The notes: generated by a model from the letters alone, not told the origin. 64,000 bases of DNA from Candidatus Chisholmbacteria bacterium (GCA_963704905.1 CAVPHZ010000001.1:643438-707437), one strand, 5' to 3'; positions 11,187 to 60,611 are shown, counted from the first letter of the stretch. Translations and numbers: made by a program.

Positions 11187-11232
11187 ATTCAATGATCAAT
11201 TATCAATGATTAAGGTTCTAACCATTTGAGCA

Positions 11233-38445: not shown

Positions 38446-38733
38446 ATGAGTTTTTTTGGACGTAAGGAAGCAAATCCTGCTAGACAAATGATTGAAGCAG
38501 CCAATGTTGCTCAACTTCCGGGTCATACTTGGCCTAGTGCCAATTTGAGTTGTGGTGGTGCTGGAAAGCCACCCGAGAGTGTCTCAGATAATGGTAAAGG
38601 GGAATACATCAATCAACTTATGGGTAACTGCGGGATGTGTGATCAGCTATTTATTTTTGTCAAATCTACAGGGGCATGGGTTACCGTGGACCAATTTGAT
38701 CAGGTAGTTGCTGATCCTCAAGCCAGTTGGTGA
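38446..38733 (+). CDS. Hypothetical small Cys-containing protein (95 aa)
   Basis: ORF only; weak. Confidence 0.25.
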   Translation: MSFFGRKEANPARQMIEAANVAQLPGHTWPSANLSCGGAGKPPESVSDNGKGEYINQLMGNCGMCDQLFIFVKSTGAWVTVDQFDQVVADPQASW

Positions 38734-38780
38734 AAGTTTTGAAGTCTTTGGTCAGGTGTGTTATGCTGAATCTGTTCAAG

Positions 38781-40874
38781 ATGGCAGAAGAACAGCAGCC
38801 TACTTCACAACCAGATGCAGTATCATCTCCGAAAGAGCCTTTTTTAAAACGGTTTATTGTTTTTCTTACGAGTTCGTTCTCGGGATTTTTAGTTATCGTT
38901 GCCGTAGTCGCGTTGATGTTGTTTATCTTTGGGAGAAAAGGCGGTTCAATCAGCATTCCTGGCTTTCCGTCTCGGCCAACAAAGTCGACTGAGCGGGTGG
39001 AAGCATTTTCTTCTGAGGAGGAATTCAAGGAGTATCTCAGTCAGGCAGAAGAGCTGATCCGTAGCGGTTTTGGTGGTGCGATGGTAAATATGCAAACTCG
39101 GGAAATGCAAGCGTTTGAAGAAGCTGGAGATTTGGCTGCACCACTTGCTTTAGAAGGCGCTCCTTCCAGTGTTGGCACAACTCCTTCACGAGTATCGGAG
39201 ACGAATGTTCAAGTTCGGGGGATTGATGAGCCAGACATATTAAAAACCGATGGGCAGTCGATATTCTTTTCGAGTAACCTGTTTTTTGCCCGACCGCTTC
39301 AATTGGATGCTCCGTCCTTTATTGAACCTGATGTTTTTACTGAAGAAGAGTCGATACTTCCACCTGAACCTGTACGCAATCAAGCTACAAAAGTAATTGA
39401 TGCGTTTCCTCCAGCTGATCTTGAAGTGATTAGCGGAATTGATAAGCAGGGTGAGATGCTGCTGGCTGATGATATGCTGGTGGTTTTTTCAAACAATGAT
39501 GTATTTGGATATGATGTTTCCAGTCCGGAAAGTCCGAAGCAACAGTGGACGATTGATCTGGACAGCAGGACTCAAATTGTGTCATCCCGACTTTTTAATG
39601 ATACCGTCTATCTTGTCACGCAGACGAGGATTAATTCGTTGGATCCTTGCCCGATTCCACTGAGAAGTGGCGGTCAAGAGCTGTTCATTGCCTGTGATGA
39701 GATCTTCCACCCTGTCCGTCCCATTCCTGCGGATTCGACGTTTACAGTATTGGCTTTTGATCCATCCACCGGAGATGTTGAAGCCCGGCAATCGTTTGTC
39801 GGTACCAGCGGGCAAAGCGTGGTGTATATGTCGCTTCACGGGATTTACATCACCTACAACTTCTTTGAGAGTCCGCTGAATTTCTTTTACGACTTTCTGG
39901 TTACTGAGGGAAGCGGGTTATTGCCCAAGATTCTGATCGATAAGTTGGGAAGCTTACGTTCACTTGAAATCAGCGCTGAGGCTAAGATGGTTGAACTTCA
40001 GAAGCTCATGGAAGAGTACGACGCTTCCCTTGACAGTGATGATCGGTTGAAACTGCAGAATGAGATGGAAAATCGAATGGAACGGTATATGCAAAAACGG
40101 TTGAGGGATTTCCAGCAAACAGGAATTGTGCGGATTGATGTACCGGACCTGAATATCAGAGCTGCGGGAAGCGTGCCAGGAATGCCGTTGAATCAATTTT
40201 CTCTTGATGAGTACAGGGGAAATTTACGTATAGCCACAACAGTCAACGATTCAATGTTCGGAACTGGGACTGAGAGCGCTAATGATGTCTATGTGCTCGA
40301 TTCCACACTAAGTGTGATTGGACAGGTTCAGGGGCTGGGACTTACAGAACGGATTTATTCGGCGAGATTTATCGGTGACCGGGGATATTTGGTAACCTTT
40401 AGGCGGATTGACCCTTTCTATGTTCTGGATCTCTCAGATGCGCGAAAGCCTGTCATGCGCGGAGAGCTAAAGATTCCAGGGTTTTCTTCTTACCTGCATC
40501 CTATTTATGAGGATGTGATCCTTGGAGTTGGCGAAGAAGGCAACAAAGTGAAGCTGTCATTGTTTGATGTGGGAGATGCGGAGAATCCAACTGAGTCAAG
40601 CAAGTACCAGCTGGATGAATACTGGACTGATGTGGCGAATACCCATCATGCGTTTTTGATGGATGCAAAGCATATGGTATTTTTCATTCCCGGAAGCCAA
40701 GGCGGATATGTGTTTAGCTATGCTGGGGATGAGCTGGAATTACTGCGAGCCGTAAGCGATATCAGCGCACGGCGGGCGCTGTTTATTGACGATTATCTCT
40801 ATATTGTGGGTGACGATAAGATTGTAGTTTTGAATGAGAATGATTGGACAGAGGTGAATAGGTTGGTGTTTTAG
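38781..40874 (+). CDS. Membrane-anchored secreted beta-propeller-domain protein (COG4880/Beta_propel-like). The ORF extends to 38727; start placed at MAEEQQ.
   Basis: N-terminal TM anchor 'FIVFLTSSFSGFLVIVAVVALMLFIF'. C-terminal region has 'YSARFIGDRGYLVTFRRIDPFYVLDLSDARKPVMRGELKIPGFSSYLHP', which I associate with this propeller family. Recognition is from memory only. Confidence 0.45.
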   Translation: MAEEQQPTSQPDAVSSPKEPFLKRFIVFLTSSFSGFLVIVAVVALMLFIFGRKGGSISIPGFPSRPTKSTERVEAFSSEEEFKEYLSQAEELIRSGFGGAMVNMQTREMQAFEEAGDLAAPLALEGAPSSVGTTPSRVSETNVQVRGIDEPDILKTDGQSIFFSSNLFFARPLQLDAPSFIEPDVFTEEESILPPEPVRNQATKVIDAFPPADLEVISGIDKQGEMLLADDMLVVFSNNDVFGYDVSSPESPKQQWTIDLDSRTQIVSSRLFNDTVYLVTQTRINSLDPCPIPLRSGGQELFIACDEIFHPVRPIPADSTFTVLAFDPSTGDVEARQSFVGTSGQSVVYMSLHGIYITYNFFESPLNFFYDFLVTEGSGLLPKILIDKLGSLRSLEISAEAKMVELQKLMEEYDASLDSDDRLKLQNEMENRMERYMQKRLRDFQQTGIVRIDVPDLNIRAAGSVPGMPLNQFSLDEYRGNLRIATTVNDSMFGTGTESANDVYVLDSTLSVIGQVQGLGLTERIYSARFIGDRGYLVTFRRIDPFYVLDLSDARKPVMRGELKIPGFSSYLHPIYEDVILGVGEEGNKVKLSLFDVGDAENPTESSKYQLDEYWTDVANTHHAFLMDAKHMVFFIPGSQGGYVFSYAGDELELLRAVSDISARRALFIDDYLYIVGDDKIVVLNENDWTEVNRLVF

Positions 40875-41100: not shown

Positions 41101-41107
41101 TTTTATT

Positions 41108-42597
<1,490 letters not shown>

Positions 42598-42689
42598 AAG
42601 GAGTTTACATAACTCACGCAAGGTTTGTCGGAGTCCTTGTCCCGCTCGGCGGGAGAAAGAAACCGACCCTATCACATCTAAGACTAACA

Positions 42690-42790
42690 AGAATTGGTTG
42701 GAATCAGATTAAAATCGGTTGAAATTAGTTAGAATTGGTTGGAATTAGTTGCAATTAGTTTAAATCAGTCGAAGTCGGTTGGAATTTGCT
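42690..42790 (+). repeat. Degenerate 10-bp tandem repeat (about 10 units of g/t-aat-y-r-gtt-r) directly after 16S
   Basis: 'gaattggttg gaatcagatt aaaatcggtt gaaattagtt agaattggtt ggaattagtt gcaattagtt taaatcagtc gaagtcggtt ggaatttgct'. Confidence 0.7.
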
Positions 42791-42796
42791 AGAGAA

Positions 42797-42822
42797 GAAC
42801 CGCTCGGGAGAGCGGTTTTTTT
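42797..42822 (+). terminator. Rho-independent terminator after 16S and the spacer repeat
   Basis: 'gaaccgctcgggagagcggtt' perfect hairpin plus 'ttttttt'. Confidence 0.7.
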
Positions 42823-42849
42823 GTGGTGTATGGTAAGATTCGGTGCTTT

Positions 42850-43935
42850 ATGCCAGATGCTGAGAAAAATTTACCATTTAGTGAAGAAGCTCTACCTACT
42901 CTGAGGAGAATGGTTGAGTATGAAGAGGAAATTGGTGTGAGAGATCCTGCAAGTTTAATGCCATTTTCTTTGTATAAGGCTGCTCTTCAAGCAGAGATTC
43001 AGAATGGACTATTTACTTTGGACGCTACCACTGAAGAAGAAAAGTTAGCTCAGGATTTATCAACCGAAGAGTTGACATTGGTTGGACCTTATCTGTCTGT
43101 AATTGCAGAAGCTCGTGTTTTTCGAAGAAAATACTATCCCGAGATTGCACGTTCAGCCGCTATCAGTACTGGATACTTCAGAGAGATTGTCTTTGCTGGA
43201 AGTGAAATTTTTCCTGACGCGTTATTGTATTTGGCAAAAAGTAAGGATGAATCAGTTGAAGAATTAATACTTGTGGAACGGTTGGGGGCATTAGCTGAAG
43301 ACATGCAAGTATATGTGGAAGATGTGATATCAAATATGCTTCTTCAGCAAGGAGCTATTCCTGAAGATCAGAGTGAGAAAGTTTATGATATTTTTGACGA
43401 TCCTCCTGATCATACTTCTGATATCTATACTGAACTTCGGCAATTATTTCTACTTGCATATCAGGTGGTTGATAGGCGAAGACCTGTGGCTATGCAAGAA
43501 AGTGAAAAGAGAACACGAGAGAGTTTTTATTTTGGAGATGAGGAGATTCAGTTAACTGAAGCGCAGAGGATAATTCTTGAACCTTTTGAAGATCTTATTG
43601 CGCAGTCTCTTAAGTTTAGAAGTGTACATAAAATTGTCATTGCTGATGATGTAATGCAGGGACCTTCCGGCTCTCAAAATTTTTATCAAGATATTTCTGA
43701 GCAGATAGCAACAGCATTACCAGATGGTATTCCTTTTTTGGTTGCAAAATATGACATTAGGGAATTTGATTTGGTATTGCCTCATCTTGATAAGATGGTT
43801 GGGCAAATGATAACTGTGGTAAAACCATATATGATTGAGGATGAAAGTAAAGATGAGCTTCGAGAAGATGCACCACCACATATCCAAGATCTCTTTGAAT
43901 TAATGAATTCTTCATTGGATGTGTTTTATTTGTAG
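42850..43935 (+). CDS. Hypothetical acidic protein (ORF extends to a GTG at 42823; ATG 42850 preferred)
   Basis: Long ORF immediately after the terminator; no motif recognised. Confidence 0.4.
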   Translation: MPDAEKNLPFSEEALPTLRRMVEYEEEIGVRDPASLMPFSLYKAALQAEIQNGLFTLDATTEEEKLAQDLSTEELTLVGPYLSVIAEARVFRRKYYPEIARSAAISTGYFREIVFAGSEIFPDALLYLAKSKDESVEELILVERLGALAEDMQVYVEDVISNMLLQQGAIPEDQSEKVYDIFDDPPDHTSDIYTELRQLFLLAYQVVDRRRPVAMQESEKRTRESFYFGDEEIQLTEAQRIILEPFEDLIAQSLKFRSVHKIVIADDVMQGPSGSQNFYQDISEQIATALPDGIPFLVAKYDIREFDLVLPHLDKMVGQMITVVKPYMIEDESKDELREDAPPHIQDLFELMNSSLDVFYL

Positions 43936-44086
43936 GAAAGGATTTGTGTTTTTTTGAACAGCTATAGAGGGCGGTTTTTTGGTGGATTTATTGATGAAGG
44001 AGCCAAGGCTGGAAAGGAATTCTCCAAAAGTTTTTGATATTTCTCGGGAAGCCAAGTATCTGTTATCATACTCATGAAGGATATCT

Positions 44087-44302
44087 ATGAAATTTTTTGG
44101 CGTGCTCTTTGTCATCACTTCGCTGGTTTGTCTGTTTCTGGGATTTATGGGGCTCAAGGGGGATATTGACCATGATTCCTACATTCGGAAGTGGACATTG
44201 TACTGGAAGGCATCGACTCAGTCCGGATATAAAATCATTGGGATTGTGTATTTGTTTCTGGGGGGGCTGCTTTACTTTGTGGCGTTGGCGATGTTGATTT
44301 GA
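44087..44302 (+). CDS. Small 2-TM membrane protein (71 aa)
   Basis: Two hydrophobic helices; precedes obg. Confidence 0.3.
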   Translation: MKFFGVLFVITSLVCLFLGFMGLKGDIDHDSYIRKWTLYWKASTQSGYKIIGIVYLFLGGLLYFVALAMLI

Positions 44303-44411
44303 GGGTTGGGTTGAATTGTCGTTTTGAGTCTCCTAAAAAGTCTGTATGCTTTTCAGGATAAACATGAACAATGATTTTCGGTTGTTATGGCTTCTTTATA
44401 GACTCTTATAG

Positions 44412-45458
<1,047 letters not shown>

Positions 45459-45540
45459 AGTGATTCTTCATTTAATCGGTCACGATACCTCTAAAGGTGA
45501 GACCTGGTAAGGTGCTCTATGGAGGAGGTTTACATTCTTT

Positions 45541-46467
45541 CTAGCTTGATTGTGAAGCGGTAGTTGTGACTAGGCAGCCGTTCCAGCCTCCGGGTCCGGC
45601 GAGGTTGGACCACTGCTGCCAGGTTCCAGACTCATAGAGATGATCCCAGCTAGTAGAGCCGCTGGAGCCGAAGTAACCTACAGGACCATTGCCAGTTTGA
45701 GCTTCGTCTCCCCAATACATGGTATGCCAACCGTTCCAGCCTCCGCTCCAGCTGATGGTGGTGTGATACAGCAGGGGATTACTACCATCTTGGTTGGCGG
45801 TGATGGTGCAGGATGGAGTTCCTTGGGTGGCTTCGACAGTGGTAACGACTTTGCATTGACCAACACCACCTGGACCATGGACATTGGTCCATTGATCCCA
45901 GGTTCCTGGATTGTAAACATGATCCCAGCTGACTGATCCGTATCGGCCATAGAAACCAACTGGACCGTTTCCTGTCTGACTTTCATCTCCCCAGTAAAAT
46001 GCGTGCCAGCCATCATAGGCCCGATCCCAACCAACTGTGGTGTGGAAGAGCTGCGGGTTTGAACCGTCTTTGGTGATGGAAATGCTGCAGGTGGCTGGAT
46101 CGGATTGACCCTCGATGGTTATTTTCAATACGCATTGGGCAGTTCCACCCGGTCCAGACATATGCGTCCATTGATCCCAAGTTCCCTGGTTGTAAAAATG
46201 ATCCCAGTTAGCTGAACCGCTAGAACCGAAATAGCCTATGGGCCCGTTGCCGGTTTGGGCTTCATCGCCCCAATACAACAGGTGCCAGCCATTCCAGCCG
46301 CCACTCCAACTTAAACTGGTGTGGAACACATGACGGTTCCCTGAATCTTGGTTTGAAGAAAGAGTACATTTTGGAGAATCAAGCGCAAACGATTTGGTGA
46401 TGAATCCAGTCGCTACTAGAAGGAGCGAAGTAAGTATTGCTGCTGCGATATTTTTTCTGCTGTTCAT
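45541..46467 (-). CDS. Secreted protein of three PKD-like ~95-aa repeats (start at MNSRKN; ORF extends to 46503)
   Basis: Signal peptide; three repeats of 'C..S.Q.....H.T.SW.GGWNGWH..YWGDE.QTGNGP.G..G..GS..WDH.Y..GTW.QW....GPGG...C'. Confidence 0.55.
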   Translation of the reverse strand: MNSRKNIAAAILTSLLLVATGFITKSFALDSPKCTLSSNQDSGNRHVFHTSLSWSGGWNGWHLLYWGDEAQTGNGPIGYFGSSGSANWDHFYNQGTWDQWTHMSGPGGTAQCVLKITIEGQSDPATCSISITKDGSNPQLFHTTVGWDRAYDGWHAFYWGDESQTGNGPVGFYGRYGSVSWDHVYNPGTWDQWTNVHGPGGVGQCKVVTTVEATQGTPSCTITANQDGSNPLLYHTTISWSGGWNGWHTMYWGDEAQTGNGPVGYFGSSGSTSWDHLYESGTWQQWSNLAGPGGWNGCLVTTTASQSS

Positions 46468-46562
46468 GTCTCGGGCAGCCCGAGTGAATGTAGTGTATTG
46501 CACCTTCAGTATACTGCATTGATCAAGCCCTGTTTTTAAAGGTTCGGAACCTTAGTTTGCCA

Positions 46563-46610
46563 AAAAAAGACAGCTCTGAGAAGTGAATCTCAGCAAGCTG
46601 TCTTTTTTAT
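46563..46610. terminator. Bidirectional rho-independent terminator
   Basis: 'aaaaaaagacagctctgagaagtgaatctcagcaagctgtctttttt': long interrupted hairpin flanked by an A-run and a T-run. Confidence 0.6.
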
Positions 46611-46619
46611 ATGGACAGA

Positions 46620-47567
46620 TTAGTTTTGGGCAGTTATTGTTTCGAGACAACCACCCCAGCCTCCGGGTCCTTCAAGATTTGACCATTGCTGCCAAGTTCC
46701 AGCATTGTAGAGATGGTCCCAGCTGGTTGAGCCGGATTGACCAAAGTAGCCGACTGGATCTGTACCAGTGACCCCTTCGTCACCCCAGTAGAACAGATGC
46801 CAGCCATCCATTGCACCATCCCAAGTAAGCGTAGAGTGGTACAAGAGAGGATTCCCACTATCTGCAGTTGTGGTCACTGAACAGACTGGCGGGTTCGGTT
46901 GTGGGGGAGTTACTACGGTGACTGTTTCAACACAGCCTCCGCCTCCTCCCGGTCCATCAACGTTTGCCCATTGCTGCCAAGTTCCAGGATCATATTCATG
47001 ATCCCAACTTGTCATACCATTTTTGCCAAAAAATCCTGGACCTTCCGCTCCTGTTACAGCTTCATCACCCCAGTGGAAGAGCGACCAATTATCATATGTT
47101 CCACTCCAAGTTACTGTTGAGTGATAGAGGAGTGGGTTGGTAGCATCTTGAGTTGAGGTAATGCTGCAAGTTGCAGGATCGGATGGAGGATATTGGGCGG
47201 TGACTGTTTGAATACAGTTTCCGTTGCCCCCTGGTCCTGAAAGGTTTGACCATTGCTGCCAGGTACCTCCGTTGTAGACGTGATCCCAACTAGACGTGCC
47301 ACTCGAGCCAAAGTAGCCGACCGGTCCGTTGTGTGTTTGAGCCTCGTCTCCCCAATGGAAAAGATGCCAGCTATTATAGGCTCCACTCCAACTTATCGTT
47401 GTGTGGTAGAGGAAAGGATCATTGGTGTCTTGGGTTGCAGTGATACTGCAGGTTGCCGGGTCGATAGCCTGAACTGTTTGTGCGAGTCCGGTGCTGCCGA
47501 TAAGAAGCAAGGTTGTTGTTCCAAGAATAACCGCTAATTTTGTTAACGATTTCATTATTCTTCTCAC
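46620..47567 (-). CDS. Secreted protein of three PKD-like repeats, paralog of 45541..46467
   Basis: Signal peptide 'MKSLTKLAVILGTTTLLLIGSTGLAQTVQA'; same repeat consensus ('WGDEA.T...GP.G.FG..G..SWDH.Y..GTWQQW....GPGG..C'). Confidence 0.55.
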   Translation of the reverse strand: MRRIMKSLTKLAVILGTTTLLLIGSTGLAQTVQAIDPATCSITATQDTNDPFLYHTTISWSGAYNSWHLFHWGDEAQTHNGPVGYFGSSGTSSWDHVYNGGTWQQWSNLSGPGGNGNCIQTVTAQYPPSDPATCSITSTQDATNPLLYHSTVTWSGTYDNWSLFHWGDEAVTGAEGPGFFGKNGMTSWDHEYDPGTWQQWANVDGPGGGGGCVETVTVVTPPQPNPPVCSVTTTADSGNPLLYHSTLTWDGAMDGWHLFYWGDEGVTGTDPVGYFGQSGSTSWDHLYNAGTWQQWSNLEGPGGWGGCLETITAQN

Positions 47568-49321
47568 CTCCTTTCTTTTGTAGAGGTGAAAAATAGCTTT
47601 GCCAAGCTATTTTGAACGTACTCGAGTGGGATGATAGCAGAAAAAAAGACTGGTGTCAAAATGTTATGGGGTTGAATGATATGCCTTTAAGGGTTCAACC
47701 TTTTAAGGTCGTAAAAAAACGGTAGACATGTGAAGTGAGAGGGGGAGAGCGATGAGTGCGGTGAAGGGGTTAACCTTCAAAGACTGGGTGCTCTGCCCGA
47801 CTTTTATTCAATGCTACCGTTTTTGTTTTGACCGAGGTTTCGGCCAGCGCAATGGTTTCGACAACGTGCGTCGAAGCTGCGCTGGCGAGAAATGATCTCG
47901 ATCAAGTTCCCCAGTTCCGGAGTAGTTTTGTTCCAATCCGGAACTGGGGGAATAACGGGTTATCCCTGCTTACCAGGGGGTACGATTGGGAATTCTCGGG
48001 TGGAGTTCAGGTCCTACCCAAAGTGACCCGGAACAGTCCAGGTAATATCTTTCAACGAGACCCCAATCAACTGTGAATTCTTCTCCTGGACTGTAGTAGT
48101 GGTTTTGCTCTTGGAGTGGTTCATGCACGAGTGCTCGACCATCGTCGAGTACAATGACAACGCCGATAAGGCGGCTGTCCACTGCGAAGGAACTATACCC
48201 TCCGACATCTACCCACTGACCATTGCTGGTCGGAGGGCACGGAGTGGATGTTACCTGTGCAGGAGCAGAACTGTTACCACCAACAGGCGTCTTACCATAT
48301 AACCCTTGTCATTATGAAGAATCTCTTCATCTGTTACTTCCTTCTCACTTTGCCTATGCTCTCACTGAGCACTTTTGTTACTTGCCCAGACAGTAATCGT
48401 CAGGGTTTTGGCAAAAGCAATCTGCGTTTCGCAGATTTTTGGTGCCTTCTCCAGTATCTTAGGAGCTTCACCTTCTCCCTTCCTCAGGGGGAGTAGGTGA
48501 TTTTTGGACGTTGTCCAAAAAAGACTGTAAGTGAGCAGAGGAGAAGAGACAACTTTATCTGATACTGTTGCTTCCTCTGTTCCGCTCACTTTCTGTGAGA
48601 AGCGAAAACAAGGGTATAACCCGCTACTTTTTTATTAAAGTGCGAACCTTTCAGCAATAGGTTTTTTCTTCCGCAGATGTGGAAGAAAAACGAGTACTGA
48701 GAAAGGAATGTACGATTAGTTTGTAAGATAAATATTCAGTTTAATTGTGTTCCACTTTCGTCCTTTTGGACTCTTCAGCTCCGATACACATCGGAGGAGT
48801 GGAACGGGTAGTCTAGATTGCTTGTTGGTAAAAATGTTGGGGTGTGAGTGAGACGATAAGTGTCTCAATCAACGATTGCATGTAATATGCCCAACAGATC
48901 TACGTTCAAGCAGTCTATATGTGACTACCCAGTTCCGACTTGACAGGGAATTCCCTTGCCGTTCCAGTCAAGCTTGTGCTTGATAGTTTTAACTAAGCGC
49001 GAGAGCGCGAAGTGAACGACTAATGGGAGTGTTTCCCATTCAAGTTTCCCAGTCCCGGGTGAGGGGTCCCACACCGGGACTGGGAGAACTGATGACAAGA
49101 TAAGTGCTGGGGAGATTGAACTCCAATCCAATAGCCTCTCGATACGCTGCTATTGATTTTCGTTCATTTTTTCCTGCTTGTAGAGGTAAAACGCTGCGAT
49201 CTCATGGCTCTCAAAACGCTCCATGGATCACGTATCTACAAGTGGATCTCCGGTTGGGGTGATTTCTAGCCTGTCAGGTTTTTTAGGCCTGATTTTTTCT
49301 AGAGGCTAGGGTTGATGCTTG

Positions 49322-52300
49322 TTACTGCGAAGCACCTCCTTGGAGTGCGGTTAACAGCGCGATGTTCTGCGCCATTGAGCCGATGTAGTCAGCAGCGCTG
49401 GCTACGATTCCAAGGTTGACTGCGAGGTCTGCGCGGGCGCTGAACGAAGCGTCCATGTCCGCTTGGACCAAACAGTCGACAACGGATACTCCCGAATAAT
49501 CTGCGCAGGCGGCTGCCTGTGCATCCGAGAGTGTTGAACTGTTCGAGCTTGCATCGATCGGTTGTCCCGTCAATGGGGCAGCCAACTCTTGCGAAGTAGG
49601 GGTAAGGCGGTCTGGAGACCACCAGCCGGGTTTGACACCGACCAGCGAATCCTGATTCAGACCTTCGAGTACTCGCAGCTCGGTGGGCAGACCTTCGTTG
49701 TCAAGCTCAGCAACATTGAGGTTGCCTTCGATGAGCATTACAACGTATCCACCACCGGGGCGAAACGCCAGTGATTCGGCGTCTGTGCTGAAGATTTTGT
49801 CATCGCCACTCTGCAAGTAGGGCTTTGAAACGAACTGCCCTGCCTGTTGCATCACCCAAGCTTCCTGGTCGGGATACCAGGTGATGCTGGTGGTTGCGCC
49901 TTCGACACCGAGGGCATCGGCTTCGAGAGCTGTCGCTCCGACCTCCGCTTTCTGAATAGAGGCGGTGTTCACGATGGTTTCGCAAACCATAACCAATCCG
50001 TCTGGGCTGACGACTGGTTTCTGGCAGTCCGAAGCCATGAGCTCCCGCTCTGACCCGTCGAGCTTGATGCGTTCGACTGTGTACTTTCCATCCCTCTCAG
50101 CAGTGAAGTAGACATGATTGTCGGTGCTAGTGAAGGGATGCAGTTCATTGACATCAGCGGTGTCGGTCAGCTGGTGAGGAGTTCCGCCGAACACGGGCAT
50201 AGAGTAGAGGTCACTTTGATCCTCTGTTTCGACAGAGAAGTCCCACTGGCAACCGTCCTTGGTGATCGAAATCACCGGGTCGGTGCTTTTACCATCCAAA
50301 TCGATTTTCACATCGACCTGGGGTTCGTGGGTGAACGTTCCGTCGGCAATCTCGTCCAGGATGTACGAGATCGTCATGCCCTGCTTCCAAAAGATGTGCT
50401 CTTCAGGAAGACACTGAGCTACCTGCGCGATGACTTCGGGCGGAGCTTGCGTTGTCGTCGGCGGTTCCTCAAAGGTGACGCTGTCGTTACAGGTAACTGA
50501 GCCACCTGGGCCGGTGACCGTAAAGGTCAGGTCGTAGGTTCCAGCGGAGGTGTACTGATGCTCGCGCATCTCCGTACCGCTCATACCCTCGAAACCAACC
50601 TCGGTTTCATCGCCCCATTCGAGGATTTGCCATCCCTCGCCATTTTCCCAGCTTGCGTTAGCGTTGATGCGCCGTTCCTCTTGCGAGGTGATTTCGGTGC
50701 TCAGACTGCAGGTGGGTGCCGGCGGAGGTGGCGGAGGCTCAAAGGTGACGCTGTCGTTACAGGTAACTGAGCCACCTGGGCCGGTGACCGTAAAGGTCAG
50801 GTCGTAGGTTCCAGCGGAGGTGTACTGATGCTCGCGCATCTCCGTACCGCTCATACCCTCGAAACCAACCTCGGTTTCATCGCCCCATTCGAGGATTTGC
50901 CATCCCTCGCCATTTTCCCAGCTTGCGTTAGCGTTGATGCGCCGTTCCTCTTGCGAGGTGATTTCGGTGCTCAGACTGCAGGTGGGTGCCGGTGGAGGTG
51001 GCGGAGGCTCAAAGGTGACCTTAGCCTTGCATGTTACCTTTCCACCAGGGCCATGAACAACCAAGCGCAGACGGTAGGTTCCAGCCTCTGGATACACATG
51101 GGTTTCCTCAAAGGTCCCATCAGTACCAGCGAAAGAAACTTGTTCGCCATTGTGGCCCCAGTACAGGGTGGTTCCATCCTCATAAGCGTTGCCATAGCTG
51201 CCACTGGCTACTGCCTCGTACAGGTTGTCAGTAGTGCTGACTTCCAAACTGCAGGTGGGTGCCGGCGGAGGTGGCGGAGGCTCAAAGGTGACCTTAGCCT
51301 TGCATGTTACCTTTCCACCAGGGCCATGAACAACCAAGCGCAGACGGTAGGTTCCAGCCTCTGGATACACATGGGTTTCCTCAAAGGTCCCATCAGTACC
51401 AGCGAAAGAAACTTGTTCGCCATTGTGGCCCCAGTACAGGGTGGTTCCATCCTCATAAGCGTTGCCATAGCTGCCACTGGCTACTGCCTCGTACAGGTTG
51501 TCAGTAGTGCTGACTTCCAAACTGCAGGTGGGTGCCGGCGGAGGTGGCGGAGGCTCAAAGGTAACTTCATCCGAGCAGCTTGTGGTGCCACCGGGTCCGG
51601 TAACCGTGAACTCTTGGACATACGTTCCGTAGTCCGAGAACTGATGCTCACGGGTCTCGTTGCCGGAAGCTCCTTGAAAGCCAACATCGGTTCCATCACC
51701 CCAGGTGAGGATGTGCCAGTCTTCATTACCGCCGTCCCAGCTCACGTTGGTGCTGATCTGCTTCTCGTCTTCGTTGACGACGGTGGTGTTCACCGAGCAG
51801 GTGGGTGCCGGCGGAGGTGGCGGGGGTTCCTCAAAGGTAACTTCATCCGAGCAGCTTGTGGTGCCACCGGGTCCGGTAACCGTGAACTCTTGGACATACG
51901 TTCCGTAGTCCGAGAACTGATGCTCACGGGTCTCGTTGCCGGAAGCTCCTTGAAAGCCAACATCGGTTCCATCACCCCAGGTGAGGATGTGCCAGTCTTC
52001 ATTACCGCCGTCCCAGCTCACGTTGGTGCTGATCTGCTTCTCGTCTTCGTTGACGACGGTGGTGTTCACCGAGCAGGTGGGTGCCGGCGGAGGTGGCGGG
52101 GGGCAATCCGGTTTGTAGATCGTTCCGGATGCGCTCCATGTATCGATCACGTTACCTTCACCATCATACCAGGTGACAGTTACGGACCAGTCCGCCGACT
52201 GTTGTCCATCAGCCCAGGTTCCGACGAGGTTCGAGCTTTCCGTTATTACACCTTCTTGGCCATTCCAGACGGTATTCACCTTGACTTCCCAGCCTTCGCA

Positions 52301-53041
52301 GGTGGGACATTCGGTGACGTCGCCGTGCCAGTCAGGAGTAACTGGAACGCAGCTTCTATTGTCCACCGTTGCGGTGGGGTTAAAGTTCACTGCGGTCTCG
52401 TCCATGCAGCCGGGGATTTCCACAGGCTCTACGGGCGGATACTCACAGCTCCCATTGTCCACCGTTGCGGTGGGGTTAAAGTTCACTGCGGTCTCGTCCA
52501 TGCAGCCGGGGATTTCCACAGGCTCTACGGGCGGATACTCACAGCTCCCATTGTCCACCGTTGCGGTGGGGTTAAAGTTCACTGCGGTCTCGTCCATGCA
52601 GCCGGGGATTTCCACAGGCTCTACGGGCGGATACTCACAGCTCCCATTGTCCACCGTTGCGGTGGGGTTAAAGTTCACTGCGGTCTCGTCCATGCAGCCG
52701 GGGATTTCCTTCGGAGGTTCCGGTGTTGGATCCTCTTTTGGGGGTTCCACAATCTCAGTGACTACTGGACCAACCTCTTCAGTAACAACAGGATCTCCAC
52801 TCCCATCATTAACTGGAGGCATTTCTGATGGATTGATAGGATCGGGCTCGCTGCCGCGATCCTTGTCCTCTGTGAGGACGGGCTGATCTACAACCACTCC
52901 CTCCGCGGGTGCGGGGGGATTGTTGTCCTGGGCAAAAGCCATGGGCACGAACGCGAAGTTCGATGCGATCATAGCAATCGCCAGGATTAACCCGATTATA
53001 TTCGGGGTTTTGCGGGATAACCGCAAGAGCTTGCTTTTCAT
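49322..53041 (-). CDS. Giant secreted surface protein (1239 aa). Signal peptide; Pro-rich region; 4x Cys-bracketed 32-aa repeat; 6 PKD-like domains as three exact duplicate pairs joined by 'EPPPPPPAPT' linkers; TolB-like beta-propeller region; C-terminal unknown domain.
   Basis: RBS 'aaggaga' 8 nt upstream of ATG 53041; 'MKSKLL...FVPMAFAQD' signal; PKD signature 'WHILTWGDGTDV...HQFSDYGTYVQEFTVTGPGG'; 'YFTAERDGKYTV...VVSPDG' propeller blades. Confidence 0.65.
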   Translation of the reverse strand: MKSKLLRLSRKTPNIIGLILAIAMIASNFAFVPMAFAQDNNPPAPAEGVVVDQPVLTEDKDRGSEPDPINPSEMPPVNDGSGDPVVTEEVGPVVTEIVEPPKEDPTPEPPKEIPGCMDETAVNFNPTATVDNGSCEYPPVEPVEIPGCMDETAVNFNPTATVDNGSCEYPPVEPVEIPGCMDETAVNFNPTATVDNGSCEYPPVEPVEIPGCMDETAVNFNPTATVDNRSCVPVTPDWHGDVTECPTCEGWEVKVNTVWNGQEGVITESSNLVGTWADGQQSADWSVTVTWYDGEGNVIDTWSASGTIYKPDCPPPPPPAPTCSVNTTVVNEDEKQISTNVSWDGGNEDWHILTWGDGTDVGFQGASGNETREHQFSDYGTYVQEFTVTGPGGTTSCSDEVTFEEPPPPPPAPTCSVNTTVVNEDEKQISTNVSWDGGNEDWHILTWGDGTDVGFQGASGNETREHQFSDYGTYVQEFTVTGPGGTTSCSDEVTFEPPPPPPAPTCSLEVSTTDNLYEAVASGSYGNAYEDGTTLYWGHNGEQVSFAGTDGTFEETHVYPEAGTYRLRLVVHGPGGKVTCKAKVTFEPPPPPPAPTCSLEVSTTDNLYEAVASGSYGNAYEDGTTLYWGHNGEQVSFAGTDGTFEETHVYPEAGTYRLRLVVHGPGGKVTCKAKVTFEPPPPPPAPTCSLSTEITSQEERRINANASWENGEGWQILEWGDETEVGFEGMSGTEMREHQYTSAGTYDLTFTVTGPGGSVTCNDSVTFEPPPPPPAPTCSLSTEITSQEERRINANASWENGEGWQILEWGDETEVGFEGMSGTEMREHQYTSAGTYDLTFTVTGPGGSVTCNDSVTFEEPPTTTQAPPEVIAQVAQCLPEEHIFWKQGMTISYILDEIADGTFTHEPQVDVKIDLDGKSTDPVISITKDGCQWDFSVETEDQSDLYSMPVFGGTPHQLTDTADVNELHPFTSTDNHVYFTAERDGKYTVERIKLDGSERELMASDCQKPVVSPDGLVMVCETIVNTASIQKAEVGATALEADALGVEGATTSITWYPDQEAWVMQQAGQFVSKPYLQSGDDKIFSTDAESLAFRPGGGYVVMLIEGNLNVAELDNEGLPTELRVLEGLNQDSLVGVKPGWWSPDRLTPTSQELAAPLTGQPIDASSNSSTLSDAQAAACADYSGVSVVDCLVQADMDASFSARADLAVNLGIVASAADYIGSMAQNIALLTALQGGASQ
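50472..52091 (-). repeat. Three consecutive pairs of perfectly identical ~270-276-bp coding units (PKD-domain duplications) inside the giant gene
   Basis: 50472-50741 equals 50742-51011; 51012-51281 equals 51282-51551; 51552-51821 equals 51822-52091 apart from one 6-nt difference. Read directly from the sequence. Confidence 0.8.
52345..52728 (-). repeat. Four tandem 96-bp units encoding 'EIPGCMDETAVNFNPTATVDNGSCEYPPVEPV'
   Basis: Unit 'actcacagctcccattgtccaccgttgcggtggggttaaagttcactgcggtctcgtccatgcagccggggatttccacaggctctacgggcggat' repeated head-to-tail; first and last copies slightly variant. Confidence 0.8.
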
Positions 53042-55162
53042 CGAAAATTCTCCTTAAAGTGAGTTACGAAGTGAGCTTCCATATCCATTGGGGAGAGCAA
53101 CCATACGAGGGTTGGATCTCCAGGATACTTCTGCTCCTTCTGAGGTTTTACCTGACTGTGCAGGGATAGAGATTTAACACCCTCTATCAGGGTAAAATTT
53201 TTGTTAATTCCCAAAGCAGTGATGTTGGTGTGATGAAGGGGAGCGTGGAGGCAAGGAACTACCCGCCACGTCTCCGCGCAGGTGCTTTAGAGGTTTTTTA
53301 GTCCTTTACCTCCACAATCCCCCTCACCAGCTGTTTCACTGATCGGGATTTCACTTTGGAGAAATCGATGAATCCACCATTTTTTCAGATGTTTTTCATC
53401 TTGTCATTCAGTTGTTAATGAGCAATCATCTCGGTCTCTAGACGTAATCTAGAGGAGATGACTTTGTCCCCATATCTTTCGGGACGGTTCTCCCGGCAAA
53501 TGTCGGGGGGTGTCCCAGATTGACCTAGGGAGGATTACCCACCTTGCGATGTCCAACTCTCCATAGGCCAAAAAAAGAGAAAACCACCCAGGGAGTCTAG
53601 TCTGACAAAAAAATACGAACACCGATGTATTAACATCATTTGGTATTGTATTGATTGTCAGGGACTTACCCTGGGTGGTGGATGGCGGTTTACTCTTCTC
53701 AAGCGGCATGAATGAAAAAAATTAAATAATTGCTTATTTGGTTTTTTTGCTTGAGATTTGTTTTTGCGTTGATCTGGTATTGAGTACGTTCCATGTAATA
53801 ATGGATACACAGATCGGGCGCAAAGATTGCGCTGATGCCAATGGGACTTTGAAAAAGTACCGTGCACCAGGGGGAGTTACCCCAACCGAGTCAGTTTTCC
53901 GAAGAAAATTGATTTGGGTCCGCTTGGGTTTCACATTGGCTCTCTACCTGTTTTTTTGGACAGTGTCCCAGATAAATTTGTGATTCCCATGACGTGGCGG
54001 TGTGGTACTTGATGAAAGTTGCCCGAAGGCAGATCTTTTTTCAATACCGAGGCCAACTATAGCCATCCTTTTTTAAAGAGCGACACACGCCTTCTGCAGG
54101 GGAGATGTTGCACCGAAGTGCGAGTCTCGAGCAGGTCCTGCAAATAGCAGGGGCGCGGTCTCTGTTCTCTGGACTGGTCCAGAGAGAACTGGAGAGAAAT
54201 AGGGATTCTCATCAGATCTCTTTGGAACAAAAGATTGCCTTGGAGGGTTTGGTTGTACCTGCTGGTTTTTCTTCGTTTGTCTTGAAAAATCAGGGTCAAA
54301 CCATAAAAAAGCCGTGAACCAAGGTCACGGCATAGTACACCAGATACAGTACTCTGGTAGGTACGTTTTTTGCCAGGATGAACCTGGCGTGATTCCTCGA
54401 GATAATTTGTTGCATTATCCCAGGATGTGACCTCTAAAGCATTTACCTCTAAAGCTTTTTAAAGAGCAGATGTGTCTTCTAGACTTTACCCTGGTAAGAC
54501 GCCGGAAAGGACTACCCTATGTATATTTTCACATAAGATATTTCACAGCCTCCCACCAGAGTGAAATCCAGAAGTGAGCGGCGAAAATCTGACGATTTTC
54601 ACAACCTATAATGATGTCAATGTGTCTCCTCGAGATTACTCGAGGGGAATACTGTCATTGCCTGGAATCCAGCTTATGAGTTACTTCTTTACTCACATAA
54701 AGAAGTAACCAAGAAAGTGTGCCCCAAGCTGTGTCGATGTCTTCACCTACGATTTTCGCTCGGGAAGTCCTTCCGAAATTCCCTTTGGTCAGTTTCGGTT
54801 TTCCTTTAGCGAACATCGGGTTCAGTAGAATCGACTCCGCTAAGGGTTTCTGCTCAGATTTTTTTATGTCAATTTGGCCAACCAAAAGCCACGATGTACG
54901 TGGCAGTTGGGAGTAAAAAAAATTAGCTTATTGGGCTAATTTTCTCTGTCCGAATTCTTGGGGCGCAGTATACTATAGTATTAGCAATTTGTCAAGGTAA
55001 CTGCTAGTAGCATAAACATACCGATATACTAGGCTAAGAGATACATATGTTTCAATTGGTATCTACACCTTTACGGTGTAGTCAGTTTGGGAAATATTAG
55101 TGCCGATGAGAATATTGATTGGCTATGGTAGGATAAGGAGAAATTAATAGAAATAAGGAATT

Positions 55163-55432
55163 ATGACTGAAGCTGAGGGAAGCGAGAGCAATCTATCCGC
55201 CGAAGGAAGACGAGAACTAGAAGGACAGATCGGAGATCTGGTCACTGGTCCGATGACAAGCGGGACAGAAGCCGAGCAACAAGAAGCACGGGGCTTAGCT
55301 GCTAGTATGAGTCGCCTTCTTGGAAGAGAGCCAGTGTTTAAGAGTGTACGAAGAGATGAGAAGACTGGCAGATTAATTGAGGAGAGCGGTACGATTACGA
55401 ATGAAGGAGAACGTAAGAAAAAGAAGAAATAA
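55163..55432 (+). CDS. Hypothetical small acidic protein (89 aa) immediately upstream of tRNA-Ile
   Basis: Good SD ('aagga' 6 nt upstream of ATG); ends in poly-Lys; no motif. Confidence 0.4.
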   Translation: MTEAEGSESNLSAEGRRELEGQIGDLVTGPMTSGTEAEQQEARGLAASMSRLLGREPVFKSVRRDEKTGRLIEESGTITNEGERKKKKK

Positions 55433-55439
55433 GATTTTA

Positions 55440-55515
55440 GGGCGAATAGCTCAGTTGGTTAGAGCGCAGTCCTGATAAGACTGAGGTCCATGGTTCGAAT
55501 CCATGTTCGCCCACC
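55440..55515 (+). tRNA. tRNA-Ile (anticodon GAU)
   Basis: 'gggcgaatagctcagttggttagagcgcagtcctgataagactgaggtccatggttcgaatccatgttcgccca': cloverleaf, anticodon loop 'cctgataag'; CCA not fully encoded. Confidence 0.9.
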
Positions 55516-55662
55516 TCGCTGCACTCAGTGCAGGCACTTCTTATTGCGTTCAGTAGAAGTACCTCTTGTATACCTTCTCAACTGTCCCGTTTTTGTGAAT
55601 GTTGTTTGATCTCAGCTTGACATGATTGTGAGACAATCGTACGCTATTGATAGAGGGTTTTT

Positions 55663-56076
55663 ATGTCCAATGGTGAGACTTCCAAAGATGAGTATATGCA
55701 GCTGTTCAATGAAATTATTCAGCAGCAATGCATTATTCTCGGTCCGGATATCTCAATCATTATCGCAAAGAAGGTCGACGGGCTGATTTTTTCTGAAGAT
55801 GGAAAAGTAACTGATTTTCAAGGAGATGGTCAGCCATTGTTGCAAAAACTTATCAATGGATTCGTAAATCTCTCTGGAATGATTGTGAGGAAAACTATCG
55901 AGCCGCTACTGGCTAAACATCCTGCTGCAGCTGCAAAAGTGACCGGGCAACCTGCTGGAAGCATACAGACTCCACAGACTCCGTTACCAAACCCACTGCC
56001 AGTTTCAGTTCAACCTCAACCTCAGCCTCAGCAACCTCTACCAAATGAACAGTCAGTCCCGAAGGAGGGATCATGA
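55663..56076 (+). CDS. Hypothetical protein with Pro/Gln-rich C-terminus (137 aa)
   Basis: ORF between tRNA-Ile and tRNA-Ala; 'QPQPQPQQPLP' tail; 4-nt overlap with the next ORF. Confidence 0.4.
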   Translation: MSNGETSKDEYMQLFNEIIQQQCIILGPDISIIIAKKVDGLIFSEDGKVTDFQGDGQPLLQKLINGFVNLSGMIVRKTIEPLLAKHPAAAAKVTGQPAGSIQTPQTPLPNPLPVSVQPQPQPQQPLPNEQSVPKEGS

Positions 56077-56645
56077 GAAGTGTAAAAGGATTTACACTTG
56101 CCGGTCTTCTAGTTTTGGTTTTTCCAGCATCGGTATTTGCGGTGGGGTTGGATTCGTCATCATTTCTTTATAGCTCAGATATTCTTGCTCCGCTTGACAT
56201 TAATATAGTCCAGGACATTGGATTAATTCTGCCCGTTGTTGTTGCTTGGTTTGCCATCCGTGTGGCTCGGCTCATGCAGGGTGGGAAGTTTGAGCGTATT
56301 TGGAAGCTGATTGCAGCAGGGATGGGTGTCCTGGCCATCATTAAAGTCGTTGATGGTTTGGAAAATTTGGGAGTACTGTATGTTGTGGGATTGCGGAATC
56401 TCTTGGAATTTGTGATGATCGTTGTCTTTTTTACGGCATTTTTGTACGGATACCGTTCGCTCATGCTGGCCATTCGGGGTCCAAGTATAGAAAAACCTGT
56501 CATTACCGTGCCCAAAGAGGAATTGGGACAAAGTGGTGCTGAGGAGAAACCAGCTAAGGAGGGTGAACCACAGGAGACTCTGCCTGCAGAATCCGAGAAG
56601 AAGACTCCGACAAAAGATCAGAAGAATAAAGATAAAACGAAATAA
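56073..56645 (+). CDS. Secreted/membrane protein (signal peptide plus ~4 TM) with Lys-rich C-terminus (190 aa)
   Basis: 'MRSVKGFTLAGLLVLVFPASVFA' signal peptide; hydrophobic helices; translationally coupled to the upstream ORF. Confidence 0.45.
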   Translation: MRSVKGFTLAGLLVLVFPASVFAVGLDSSSFLYSSDILAPLDINIVQDIGLILPVVVAWFAIRVARLMQGGKFERIWKLIAAGMGVLAIIKVVDGLENLGVLYVVGLRNLLEFVMIVVFFTAFLYGYRSLMLAIRGPSIEKPVITVPKEELGQSGAEEKPAKEGEPQETLPAESEKKTPTKDQKNKDKTK

Positions 56646-56742
56646 ACCTCTTATTTAAAGACTCCTCTTTGCGCGTTTGTATGCGCTGACACCTTTATTG
56701 CTGTAATCCGTTTGATTTTTGAATGTGATCGGATTGATATTG

Positions 56743-56771
56743 TTGACTTCTTTAGGGGTGTCTGTTAGGAT
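56743..56771 (+). promoter_or_regulatory. Candidate promoter for tRNA-Ala-23S-5S
   Basis: 'ttgact'-17 nt-'taggat' about 275 nt upstream of tRNA-Ala. Confidence 0.3.
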
Positions 56772-57046
56772 ACAGATTGCCAATTTTTTAGGCGAACTTT
56801 AGGAGGCTTTTTCTACAACTCATGAGAATATTTGGTTTACATCGATTGCTTCAGTGCCGTCTTCGAAGGTGGCAAACGTAGTCGCGACTCCTGATCCTCA
56901 TGTGTTGAGAAGAATCTCCGTAAGCGGAGATTTTTTATTGACATACCCGTCGGGTTGGACAGGGGCCTGTAGCTCCCTGTAAAAATTTATACGTTTCCAA
57001 ATTTTTACAGGGCGAGACGCTATCAGAAATTGCTGGCCTTTAAAAA

Positions 57047-57122
57047 GGGCCTGTAGCTCAGTTGGCTAGAGCGCTACATTTGCAATGTAGAGGTCACCGG
57101 TTCGAGTCCGGTCAGGTCCACC
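57047..57122 (+). tRNA. tRNA-Ala (anticodon UGC) with the G3-U70 identity pair
   Basis: 'gggcctgtagctcagttggctagagcgctacatttgcaatgtagaggtcaccggttcgagtccggtcaggtccacc'; acceptor gggcctg/caggtcc gives G3-U70. Confidence 0.9.
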
Positions 57123-57371
57123 TCGATTTGCTAAGCAAATCTCGGTGCGGGCACCTAAAAATAAGAAGCGTGTAAAGCATTTTTCGATGCGGGCACCTTT
57201 TAAAATAAGAACGAATCAAAGGTTGATGAGAGTTTATCTTTCATAAATATAAACTTTCGTGAGTCTTTGATCAGAGATGATCATATGAGCTCAGGCTAGC
57301 TCTTTGACAAGTGAATAGAATGTTTTGTCAAGTCATATTCCCATATGACTTGGTAGGACCGATCTTTGTAG

Positions 57372-60370
<2,999 letters not shown>

Positions 60371-60493
60371 TTACATTGATCGGTGCATTCTATTCATTTT
60401 TCAGAGAGCAAGCGAAAGCCACGCCACTATATTTGATGTGGTGAGGTAAACTTGGACAATTTACTCAAGTTTTAGAATCATATATAATACTAT

Positions 60494-60611
60494 TGCTGGT
60501 CTTTTGAGCGGGGTGGCCCTACCTCTTCCCATACCGAACAGAGTCGTCAAACACCCCAGCGCTGACGATAGTGCTACCGCAAGGTTGCGCGAAAATAGGT
60601 CAAGGCCAGCA
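60494..60611 (+). rRNA. rrf: 5S ribosomal RNA
   Basis: 5' 'ttgctggtc' pairs with 3' 'ggccagca'; internal 'cccataccgaacagag' loop C block; followed by 'tttttgtgg'. Confidence 0.8.

Follow-up and report, generated by a model that had tools for sequence, protein, structure and literature searches.

We analysed a 64,000-nucleotide (nt) stretch of Candidatus (Ca.) Chisholmbacteria DNA, referred to below as the window and used for all coordinates, and within it a block at 45541-53041 that an initial annotation had described as a G+C-rich (GC-rich) set of genes for surface proteins and as a possible foreign island. As that annotation had it, the block carries three open reading frames (ORFs) on the minus strand (45541-46503, 46620-47567 and 49322-53041), which encode two paralogous proteins of three repeats each, here called small paralogs 2 and 1, and a giant of 1239 amino acids (aa), in which we counted six repeat units. 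The database versions of these proteins (P0003, P0001 and P0008, respectively) all lie on one 772,908-bp contig; in the homology search those of the small paralogs begin at internal ATGs, unlike the starts given by the ORF finder, and P0003 and P0001 are 55% identical. Each of the three N-termini runs from a basic through a hydrophobic segment to an AxA-type site (VQA|I, SFA|L and AFA|Q), a pattern judged by reading the sequence without a signal-peptide predictor, and these signal-like N-termini support the earlier description of the products as secreted.

PKD-like units of about 90 aa had been proposed for both kinds of protein, and the proposed consensus proved right for both, the common form being TCS...W.GG..W..L.WGD...G.SG...H.Y..GT[YW]...GPGG..C. 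In the small proteins the units measure ~88 aa each, are flanked on either side by an invariant Cys and contain numerous Trp that do not vary; these proteins gave no Pfam match at E<=1, fell below the PKD gathering threshold, and form a family that is not recognised by Pfam, PHROGs or NCBIfam. A hidden Markov model (HMM) built from 18 small units aligned end to end with all six units of the giant (E 7e-11 to 9e-18), which Pfam calls PKD_4 (74.1 bits against a gathering threshold of 27, E 9.3e-21, in six stretches; PKD itself 45.5 bits, threshold 23.5), and in P0277, which comes from a different organism, a unit of the giant type and a unit of the small type occur within the same chain. The small-paralog units are therefore homologous to accepted PKD domains, though invisible to Pfam. 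The AlphaFold model of P0001 consists of three beta-sandwiches (predicted local distance difference test score, pLDDT, 86.4), in agreement with the seven-to-eight-strand sandwich fold of PKD domains, and a Foldseek search with this model returned only generic tandem FN3/Ig strings, with no specific PKD entry on top. Like PKD proteins at large (PF18911 PKD_4 and PF00801 PKD), of which the giant's six units pass the Pfam models, the giant carries beta-sandwiches of ~85 aa set in tandem on linkers, with a WGDG-type motif in place of WDFGDG; unlike them, every unit here is bracketed by a Cys pair (TCS...GPGGxxxC), and the units of the small paralogs are Trp-rich (GTWxQW, HWGDE). Six clusters among 5.8 billion, plus P0007, make up the small-paralog family, and the sole named relative of the small proteins comes from Ca. 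Chisholmbacteria metagenome-assembled genomes; wherever a member has a name or a placement, it belongs to a Chisholmbacteria-like genome.

Tandem sandwiches with paired Cys also raise the question of whether the small paralogs and the giant could be subunits or accessories of the Pam-type pilus of the Candidate Phyla Radiation (CPR), in which Ig-like pilins are polymerised by donor-strand exchange. Those pilins are CPR-specific, Sec-exported, Ig-like and abundant surface proteins with paired Cys, they come in paralog pairs, and they occur in Microgenomatia (Troman et al. 2026, bioRxiv 10.64898/2026.03.03.709456); in addition, the giant has a weak NCBIfam match to PamR (40 bits). However, the PamR cutoff is 300 bits and the match spans 41 residues within one PKD unit, no NCBIfam model is matched by the small proteins, the structural model has three complete beta-sandwiches and not an N-terminal sandwich followed, at the C-terminus, by a truncated Ig domain that a donor strand completes, and no chaperone-like genes were found among the window ORFs scanned. 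None of the three proteins belongs to the Pam pilus families, and we regard a place in such a pilus as very unlikely.

The giant combines, in order, a signal-like N-terminus, a Pro-rich and acidic spacer, four 32-aa Cys modules, a region of ~80 aa, six PKD units in three tandem doublets on rigid poly-Pro linkers, a propeller and a helical end (Table 1). The PKD units follow one another at 90-92 aa from start to start, poly-Pro linker included (periods of 270/273/276 at 98-99% in Tandem Repeats Finder), and within each doublet the domain bodies are 100% identical in DNA, differences being confined to the poly-Pro linker. When the PKD units were searched alone, a check that the initial annotation had suggested, relatives did not exceed 43% identity and none emerged as a candidate donor. 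The propeller module of ~290 aa was modelled with a pLDDT of 82.7, and its top 19 Foldseek matches are all TolB (E 1.5e-10 to 7e-9, template-modelling score ~0.5), with weak TIGR02800, DUF5050 and PD40 signals in the sequence; yet family-level cut-offs are missed by far (TIGR02800, 25 bits versus 343; DUF5050, 16 bits versus 27), and unlike TolB the module lacks the N-terminal domain of that protein and is joined to PKD repeats. CPR bacteria are not known to possess an outer membrane. The helical end matches DUF3597 over ~66 aa at 22.7 bits, under the Pfam cutoff of 29.8, and PHROG 2307, a phage 'L-alanyl-D-glutamate peptidase', at E 3.3e-9, the latter match lending the DUF3597 assignment indirect support; the domain recurs in the short proteins P0162 and P0203. 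A published list of domains with which Bacillus phage amidases and endolysins bind the cell wall includes DUF3597, itself uncharacterised (PMC11674121); unlike in those enzymes, the domain here ends a structural protein and not a lysin.

Among the parts of the giant, only the 32-aa module, with the pattern GCxDxxAxNFNPxAxxDNGSCEY and its two cysteines, drew many database matches; it is widespread in large proteins with type IX secretion system (T9SS) sorting domains (40-58% identity), two of which are named as Bacteroidota. It appears to be an undescribed small disulfide module; weak Pfam matches to photosystem I PsaN, below or near threshold, are probably spurious. A homology search with the whole giant was swamped by this module, the matches covering ~10% of the query, and the giant family was defined from the last 380 aa, which were used as the query of an exhaustive HMMER search. 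The propeller is the conserved core of that family, with relatives at 49% (P0128), 40% (P0129) and ~30% identity (P0131, P0133 and P0134), and of these P0133 carries one Cys module.

Table 1. Position and nature of the features in the 64,000-nt window.
Feature	Position	Strand	Description
Small paralog 2	45541-46467	-	308 aa from ATG at 46467 (P0003); ORF to GTG at 46503; three units
Small paralog 1	46620-47555	-	311 aa from ATG at 47555 (P0001, 100%); ORF to GTG at 47567; three units
Giant	49322-53041	-	1239 aa (P0008); multidomain, predicted exported surface protein; codon usage rich in C-ending codons
Cys module, four copies	52325-52708	-	32 aa, EIPGCMDETAVNFNPTATVDNGSCEYPPVEPV (GCMDETAVNFNPTATVDNGSCEY modules); copies 1-3 identical in DNA (96-nt copies)
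PKD units, six	50450-52084	-	aa 320-864; doublets in the order A A B B C C, joined by PPPPPPAP linkers
TolB-like six-bladed beta-propeller	49595-50404	-	about aa 880-1149; conserved core of the giant family
C-terminal helical domain	49325-49579	-	~70 aa; possible cell-wall anchor; preceded by a low-confidence linker
Promoter-like site	47631-47659	-	TTGACA, 17 nt, TG-TATCAT; 11/12 matches; ahead of small paralog 1
Element C	47712-47971	-	conserved, structured, non-coding; long-range stem, then U-run (ACCGUUUUUUU), terminator-like
Hammerhead type III-like motif	48750-48804	-	Rfam RF00008, 35.6 bits (gathering 48.5), E 1.8e-5
Hairpin element A	54466-54577	-	~105 nt, near-perfect; 1.4-2.7 kb upstream of giant-family genes in three lineages
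Element B	54658-54887	-	conserved, non-coding; adjoins element A
16S rRNA gene	41102-42595	+	convergent with the block; landmark kept in relatives
obg	44439-45458	+	
tRNA-Ile	55440-55515	+	
tRNA-Ala	57047		
23S rRNA gene	57385-60364		followed by 5S
Beta_propel protein	38727-40874	+	715 aa (PF09826, E 2e-103); between mnmA and 16S
Direct repeats	42690-42764	+	three overlapping copies of ~20 nt (AGAATTGGTTGGAAT...); directly past the 16S 3' end
370-aa ORF	42823-43935	+	between 16S and obg

The GC content of the block had been put at 58-62%, above even the ribosomal RNA (rRNA) genes. Both statements hold for the giant only (56.7%, with 200-nt windows of 52-60%, compared with 54.4% for 16S and 50.9% for 23S) and fail for the small genes (51.7% and 50.0%); the whole block averages 52.5%, the gap between the small genes and the giant 46.4%, and bases 1-41000 of the window 42.2%, the window itself being ~42-44% GC. 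In order to separate codon choice from protein composition, the expected GC content at third codon positions (GC3) was computed from each gene's amino acids and the codon usage of the other 39 window ORFs. With amino acids controlled for in this way, as the initial annotation had suggested for a test of its proposal, the GC3 of the small genes is normal (observed/expected 0.454/0.385, z 2.5, for small paralog 2, and 0.380/0.388, z -0.3, for small paralog 1), and their surplus GC is located at codon position 2 (0.55); their GC-richness is a matter of amino-acid composition (Gly, Pro, Trp, Thr, Ser and Ala). The giant, however, has a GC3 of 0.606 where 0.387 is expected (z 15.6), other window genes ranging from -5.6 to 3.1; of the three genes it alone withstands the refutation test set by the initial annotation. 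Every segment of it is shifted, including the non-repeated propeller and C-terminus (z 8.9), and the rise in GC is limited to the ORF. The shift is toward C-ending codons (ATC, GAC, AAC, ACC, AGC, GGC, GTC and TGC) and AAG, with Ala codons unchanged. An effect of the replication strand was ruled out as the source of the high GC3, since other minus-strand genes have values of 0.35-0.49. The raw GC contrast had thus misled in two ways, through amino acids in the small genes and through the codon bias of a gene family in the giant.

Effects of codons and amino acids could be told from lateral transfer only with the gene order of relatives. A reduced alignment (A5) served to scan for loci, the fuller one (A4) being too diverse for scanning. 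L002, from Ca. Chisholmbacteria RIFCSPHIGHO2_01_FULL_52_32, has a 16S ~85% identical to the window's and an order like that of the window, in which ATPgrasp_ST and RimK-like ATP-grasp genes and mnmA lead up to 16S (at 31-42.6 kb in the window), and beyond it lie a small homologue in convergent orientation and a gene resembling the giant's. The 778-aa product of the latter, which is encoded upstream of the small homologue, is collinear with the last PKD units and the propeller of the giant. L001 repeats the arrangement with a giant-like fragment and two small paralogs, the latter convergent with obg exactly as in the window, in L008 (16S ~79% identical) a 574-aa family member is convergent to 16S, and on the contig of P0005 a PKD_4/Tricorn_N protein of 858 aa is encoded upstream of the gene for a small homologue. 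Genes of the giant family face 16S convergently at 6.7 kb (window), 5.8 kb (L002) and 2.1 kb (L008) from its 3' end, in genomes whose mutual 16S identities are 76-85%. In each of these three lineages the gene exceeds its own neighbours in GC3 (z 15.6, 8.4 and 7.3 for the window, L002 and L008, with neighbours at -2.8 to 3.6), the codon-shift vectors of the family correlate (r 0.79, 0.72 and 0.58) and are dominated by C-ending codons (ATC, GAC, AAC, TGC, TTC, GTC, GGC and ACC) plus AAG, and the mean shift toward C is +0.20, +0.21 and +0.11. Because the excess travels with the gene family at a conserved site, recent import is a poor explanation for it, and a bias intrinsic to the family fits. 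Overall, these results support, with a probability of about 0.68, the reading that the block is a vertically inherited, lineage-specific, adhesin-like surface-protein locus of a small-genome CPR bacterium related to Ca. Chisholmbacteria (Microgenomates), and that its large member has a codon bias belonging to the gene family and not to the genome.

This reading leaves little of the lateral acquisition that the initial annotation had proposed for the block. The entire 7.5-kb block would stand out as a genomic island through its mean of 52.5% GC over a background of 42%, through a dinucleotide distance that is elevated over 45-55 kb, and through the hammerhead-like motif within it, hammerhead elements having been reported near phage genes in bacteria. 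Apart from the local deviation in composition, the block is unlike genomic islands. None of its ORFs matched an integrase or transposase in Pfam, PHROGs or NCBIfam; a repeat search of the flanks, where integration scars had been suspected, found no meaningful direct or inverted repeats; and the nearest tRNA, tRNA-Ile, has its 3' end facing away from the block and offers no tRNA-3' junction. The site is not empty in relatives and the distribution is not patchy, the locus lying beside 16S in L002 and L008 and beside obg in L001, and the gene order is kept in lineages at 85% and 79% 16S identity, which already contradicts an island. The small genes follow the codon usage of the host, and no relative of their family was found in the viral contigs searched. 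We consider acquisition of the whole block extremely unlikely.

Several observations weigh against a native giant, and they would be accounted for if this gene alone were recently foreign, a related CPR lineage richer in GC having supplied a replacement allele by homologous recombination, for which the adjoining conserved 16S may have been the anchor, with the small paralogs native. The GC3 excess extends over all segments and stops at the ends of the ORF. The tetranucleotide check that had been suggested for the block does single out the giant, whose correlation with the rest of the window is the lowest (0.18 versus 0.45-0.67); its third-position GC skew of 0.22 is at the low end of the window's range, and its codons fit the GC-richer L002 and L004 backgrounds better than its own (-1.69 and -1.66 versus -1.75 bits per codon), all of which is as expected of a foreign gene, and relatives of 52-55% GC exist. 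As for the vertical reading itself, strict orthology between the giant and the L002 protein (~23% identity) is unproven, and the comparison extends over three lineages with usable flanks and two short contigs. The exact repeats of the giant may in principle be mis-assembled, and export, anchoring and binding are predictions from sequence and models. Against a foreign giant, the homologues in L002 and L008 have the same excess over their own genomes, with correlated shifts and at the same locus, so that one would have to assume import after import, each from a donor still richer in GC. Nor did a close donor emerge: the best full-module relative is 49% identical and comes from a contig (L003) of 46% GC that has the window's upstream hairpin, and for the PKD units no relative passes 43%. 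The shift concerns C-ending codons specifically and leaves Ala untouched. A recent replacement of the giant is therefore unlikely in our view.

The high GC3 of the giant family could also be a by-product of frequent recombination, that is, of GC-biased gene conversion in a surface gene that is rich in repeats and subject to diversifying selection. The perfect tandem doublets and the three 96-nt copies without a difference between them show that recombination or duplication took place very recently, the GC3 excess is repeated in the homologues, and the family diverges fast (23-49% identity between lineages). However, the non-repeated propeller is shifted as much as the repeats, the shift in the window and in L002 is toward C-ending codons and not toward G+C overall (Ala GCC/GCG are flat), and the small paralogs, which are repeat proteins too, are unshifted; gene conversion is thus an improbable source of the bias. 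If the bias is intrinsic to the family, as we favour, a leading candidate cause would be translational selection through high expression. Against this, AAG, CAG and GAG all rise in the giant, which is not the classic pattern of translational selection. The window contains no genes for ribosomal proteins or EF-Tu/elongation factors, and hence no expression reference of its own. As analogies from cultured CPR bacteria, secreted PKD, Ig-like and peptidoglycan-binding proteins are among the top-expressed genes of parasitic Patescibacteria (Kuroda et al. 2024, PMC10936435), and Ig-like pilins rank 2nd and 9th in protein abundance in Ca. Mycosynbacter (bioRxiv 10.64898/2026.03.03.709456).

Two ORF-free stretches, 47568-49321 and 53042-55162, interrupt an otherwise compact genome on either side of the giant. 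As judged by minimum free energy (MFE) in 140-nt windows, both are structured, with mean z (plus/minus strand) of -3.0/-3.4 in gap 1 (47560-49330) and -1.8/-2.5 in gap 2 (53030-55450), compared with -0.04/-0.09 in 35 windows of other intergenic DNA and about -0.5 to 0 in coding DNA, and the flanks of family genes in L001, L002, L003 and L008 are likewise structured. No internal repeats and no pseudogene remnants of the family or of the relatives' accessory genes were detected in the gaps, and Rfam, searched over the gaps and the related loci, yielded only the sub-threshold hammerhead. In gap 1, the region up to 47673, which includes the promoter-like site of the small paralogs, is conserved in L001. 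Immediately upstream of this site lies element C, which is the most structured part of the gap (MFE z -7 to -11) and matches L001 740-982 (nhmmer E 1e-6) with 33 shared pairs, two of them compensatory. The hammerhead-like motif, ~520 nt downstream of the giant's stop codon and on the same strand, has the complete core (CUGAAGA/GAAA/UC cleavage site) along with three helices; nowhere else in the 64 kb does this core pattern occur, the MFE fold is a three-way junction (z -4.4), and Rfam did not find the motif in the related loci searched.

In gap 2, hairpin A also occurs at L003 375-484 (+) and L002 224-329 (+). A covariance model (R1) scored the window copy at 124 bits, L003 at 124 and L002 at 74, with 32-44 on the opposite strand; across the three sequences 84/84 pair cells are paired and two pairs are compensatory, and no Rfam family matched. 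The adjoining element B was matched by nhmmer in L002 (449-704, E 1.7e-7) and L004 (2781-3014, E 2e-5), the latter two being nearly identical. A reading of element B as a 76-aa ORF was ruled out, as the lengths of its indels are not divisible by three and conservation is limited to 11 aa. Elements A and B together are bracketed by a promoter-like site (54995-54967) and a terminator-like hairpin (54331-54311). One could go further and propose that the giant-family gene encodes the major host-attachment or envelope protein of a Microgenomates CPR group, fixed convergent to 16S and with its codon bias kept across lineages, and that it is embedded in previously undescribed structured RNAs (A, B, C and the hammerhead) which process, stabilise or regulate its own transcripts and those of the small paralogs, making up a CPR-specific, RNA-controlled surface module; taken as a whole, this proposal is speculative and we give it a low chance of being right.

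The rRNA genes of the window are unlinked (41102-60611), with 12.8 kb parting 16S from tRNA-Ile, tRNA-Ala and 23S, and two ORFs (55663-56645) lie between the two tRNA genes. The order inside the 12.8-kb stretch is the 370-aa ORF, obg, the two small genes, a 1.75-kb gap, the giant and a 2.1-kb gap. The 370-aa ORF has the lowest GC3 of the window (0.24, z -5.6) and is odder toward AT than the small PKD genes are toward GC; it has no match in Pfam, PHROGs or NCBIfam and is missing at the corresponding position of L002. The order mnmA-16S upstream and surface-protein genes downstream of 16S are common to the window and L002 (16S at 11099-12613), where mnmA immediately adjoins 16S without the Beta_propel gene between them. 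L002 has a further gene between its giant-like gene and small homologue (8397-9542, +), for a 381-aa Pro/Thr-rich protein with a GC3 z of 5.2, of which a 361-aa counterpart sits on the P0005 contig and no homologue was found in the window. The 16S of L008 (13183-14907) is 1725 nt long, ~190 nt beyond the Rfam model.

As for function, we propose that all three proteins leave the cell via Sec and that the C-terminal domain probably holds the giant on the cell wall, so that the propeller, the poly-Pro/PKD stalk and the Cys modules would face outward, and the small Trp-rich PKD proteins would act as soluble or surface-associated binders. The length of the stalk may vary by ongoing unequal recombination, as the perfect tandem doublets suggest. 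The likely task of the giant and the small paralogs would be to bind a partner surface or glycan, in attachment either to a host or to a substrate or polysaccharide. The secreted proteins of Patescibacteria for which host attachment has been proposed (PMC10936435) are comparable by domain type, being CPR proteins with a signal peptide and a toolkit of PKD/Ig-like and wall-binding domains, but they belong to another class, Paceibacteria. Two groups are defined by the locus, namely a very narrow PKD subfamily that Pfam does not see and a surface family with a propeller, the latter tied to the 16S-adjacent region in Chisholmbacteria-like CPR bacteria. The structured and partly conserved flanks of the locus, with the hammerhead-like motif, offer inexpensive leads toward new RNAs of CPR bacteria, and its proteins qualify as candidates for attaching organisms of little-known lifestyle to a host or a substrate; if the bias toward C-ending codons does reflect expression, it would mark the giant as an abundant envelope protein.

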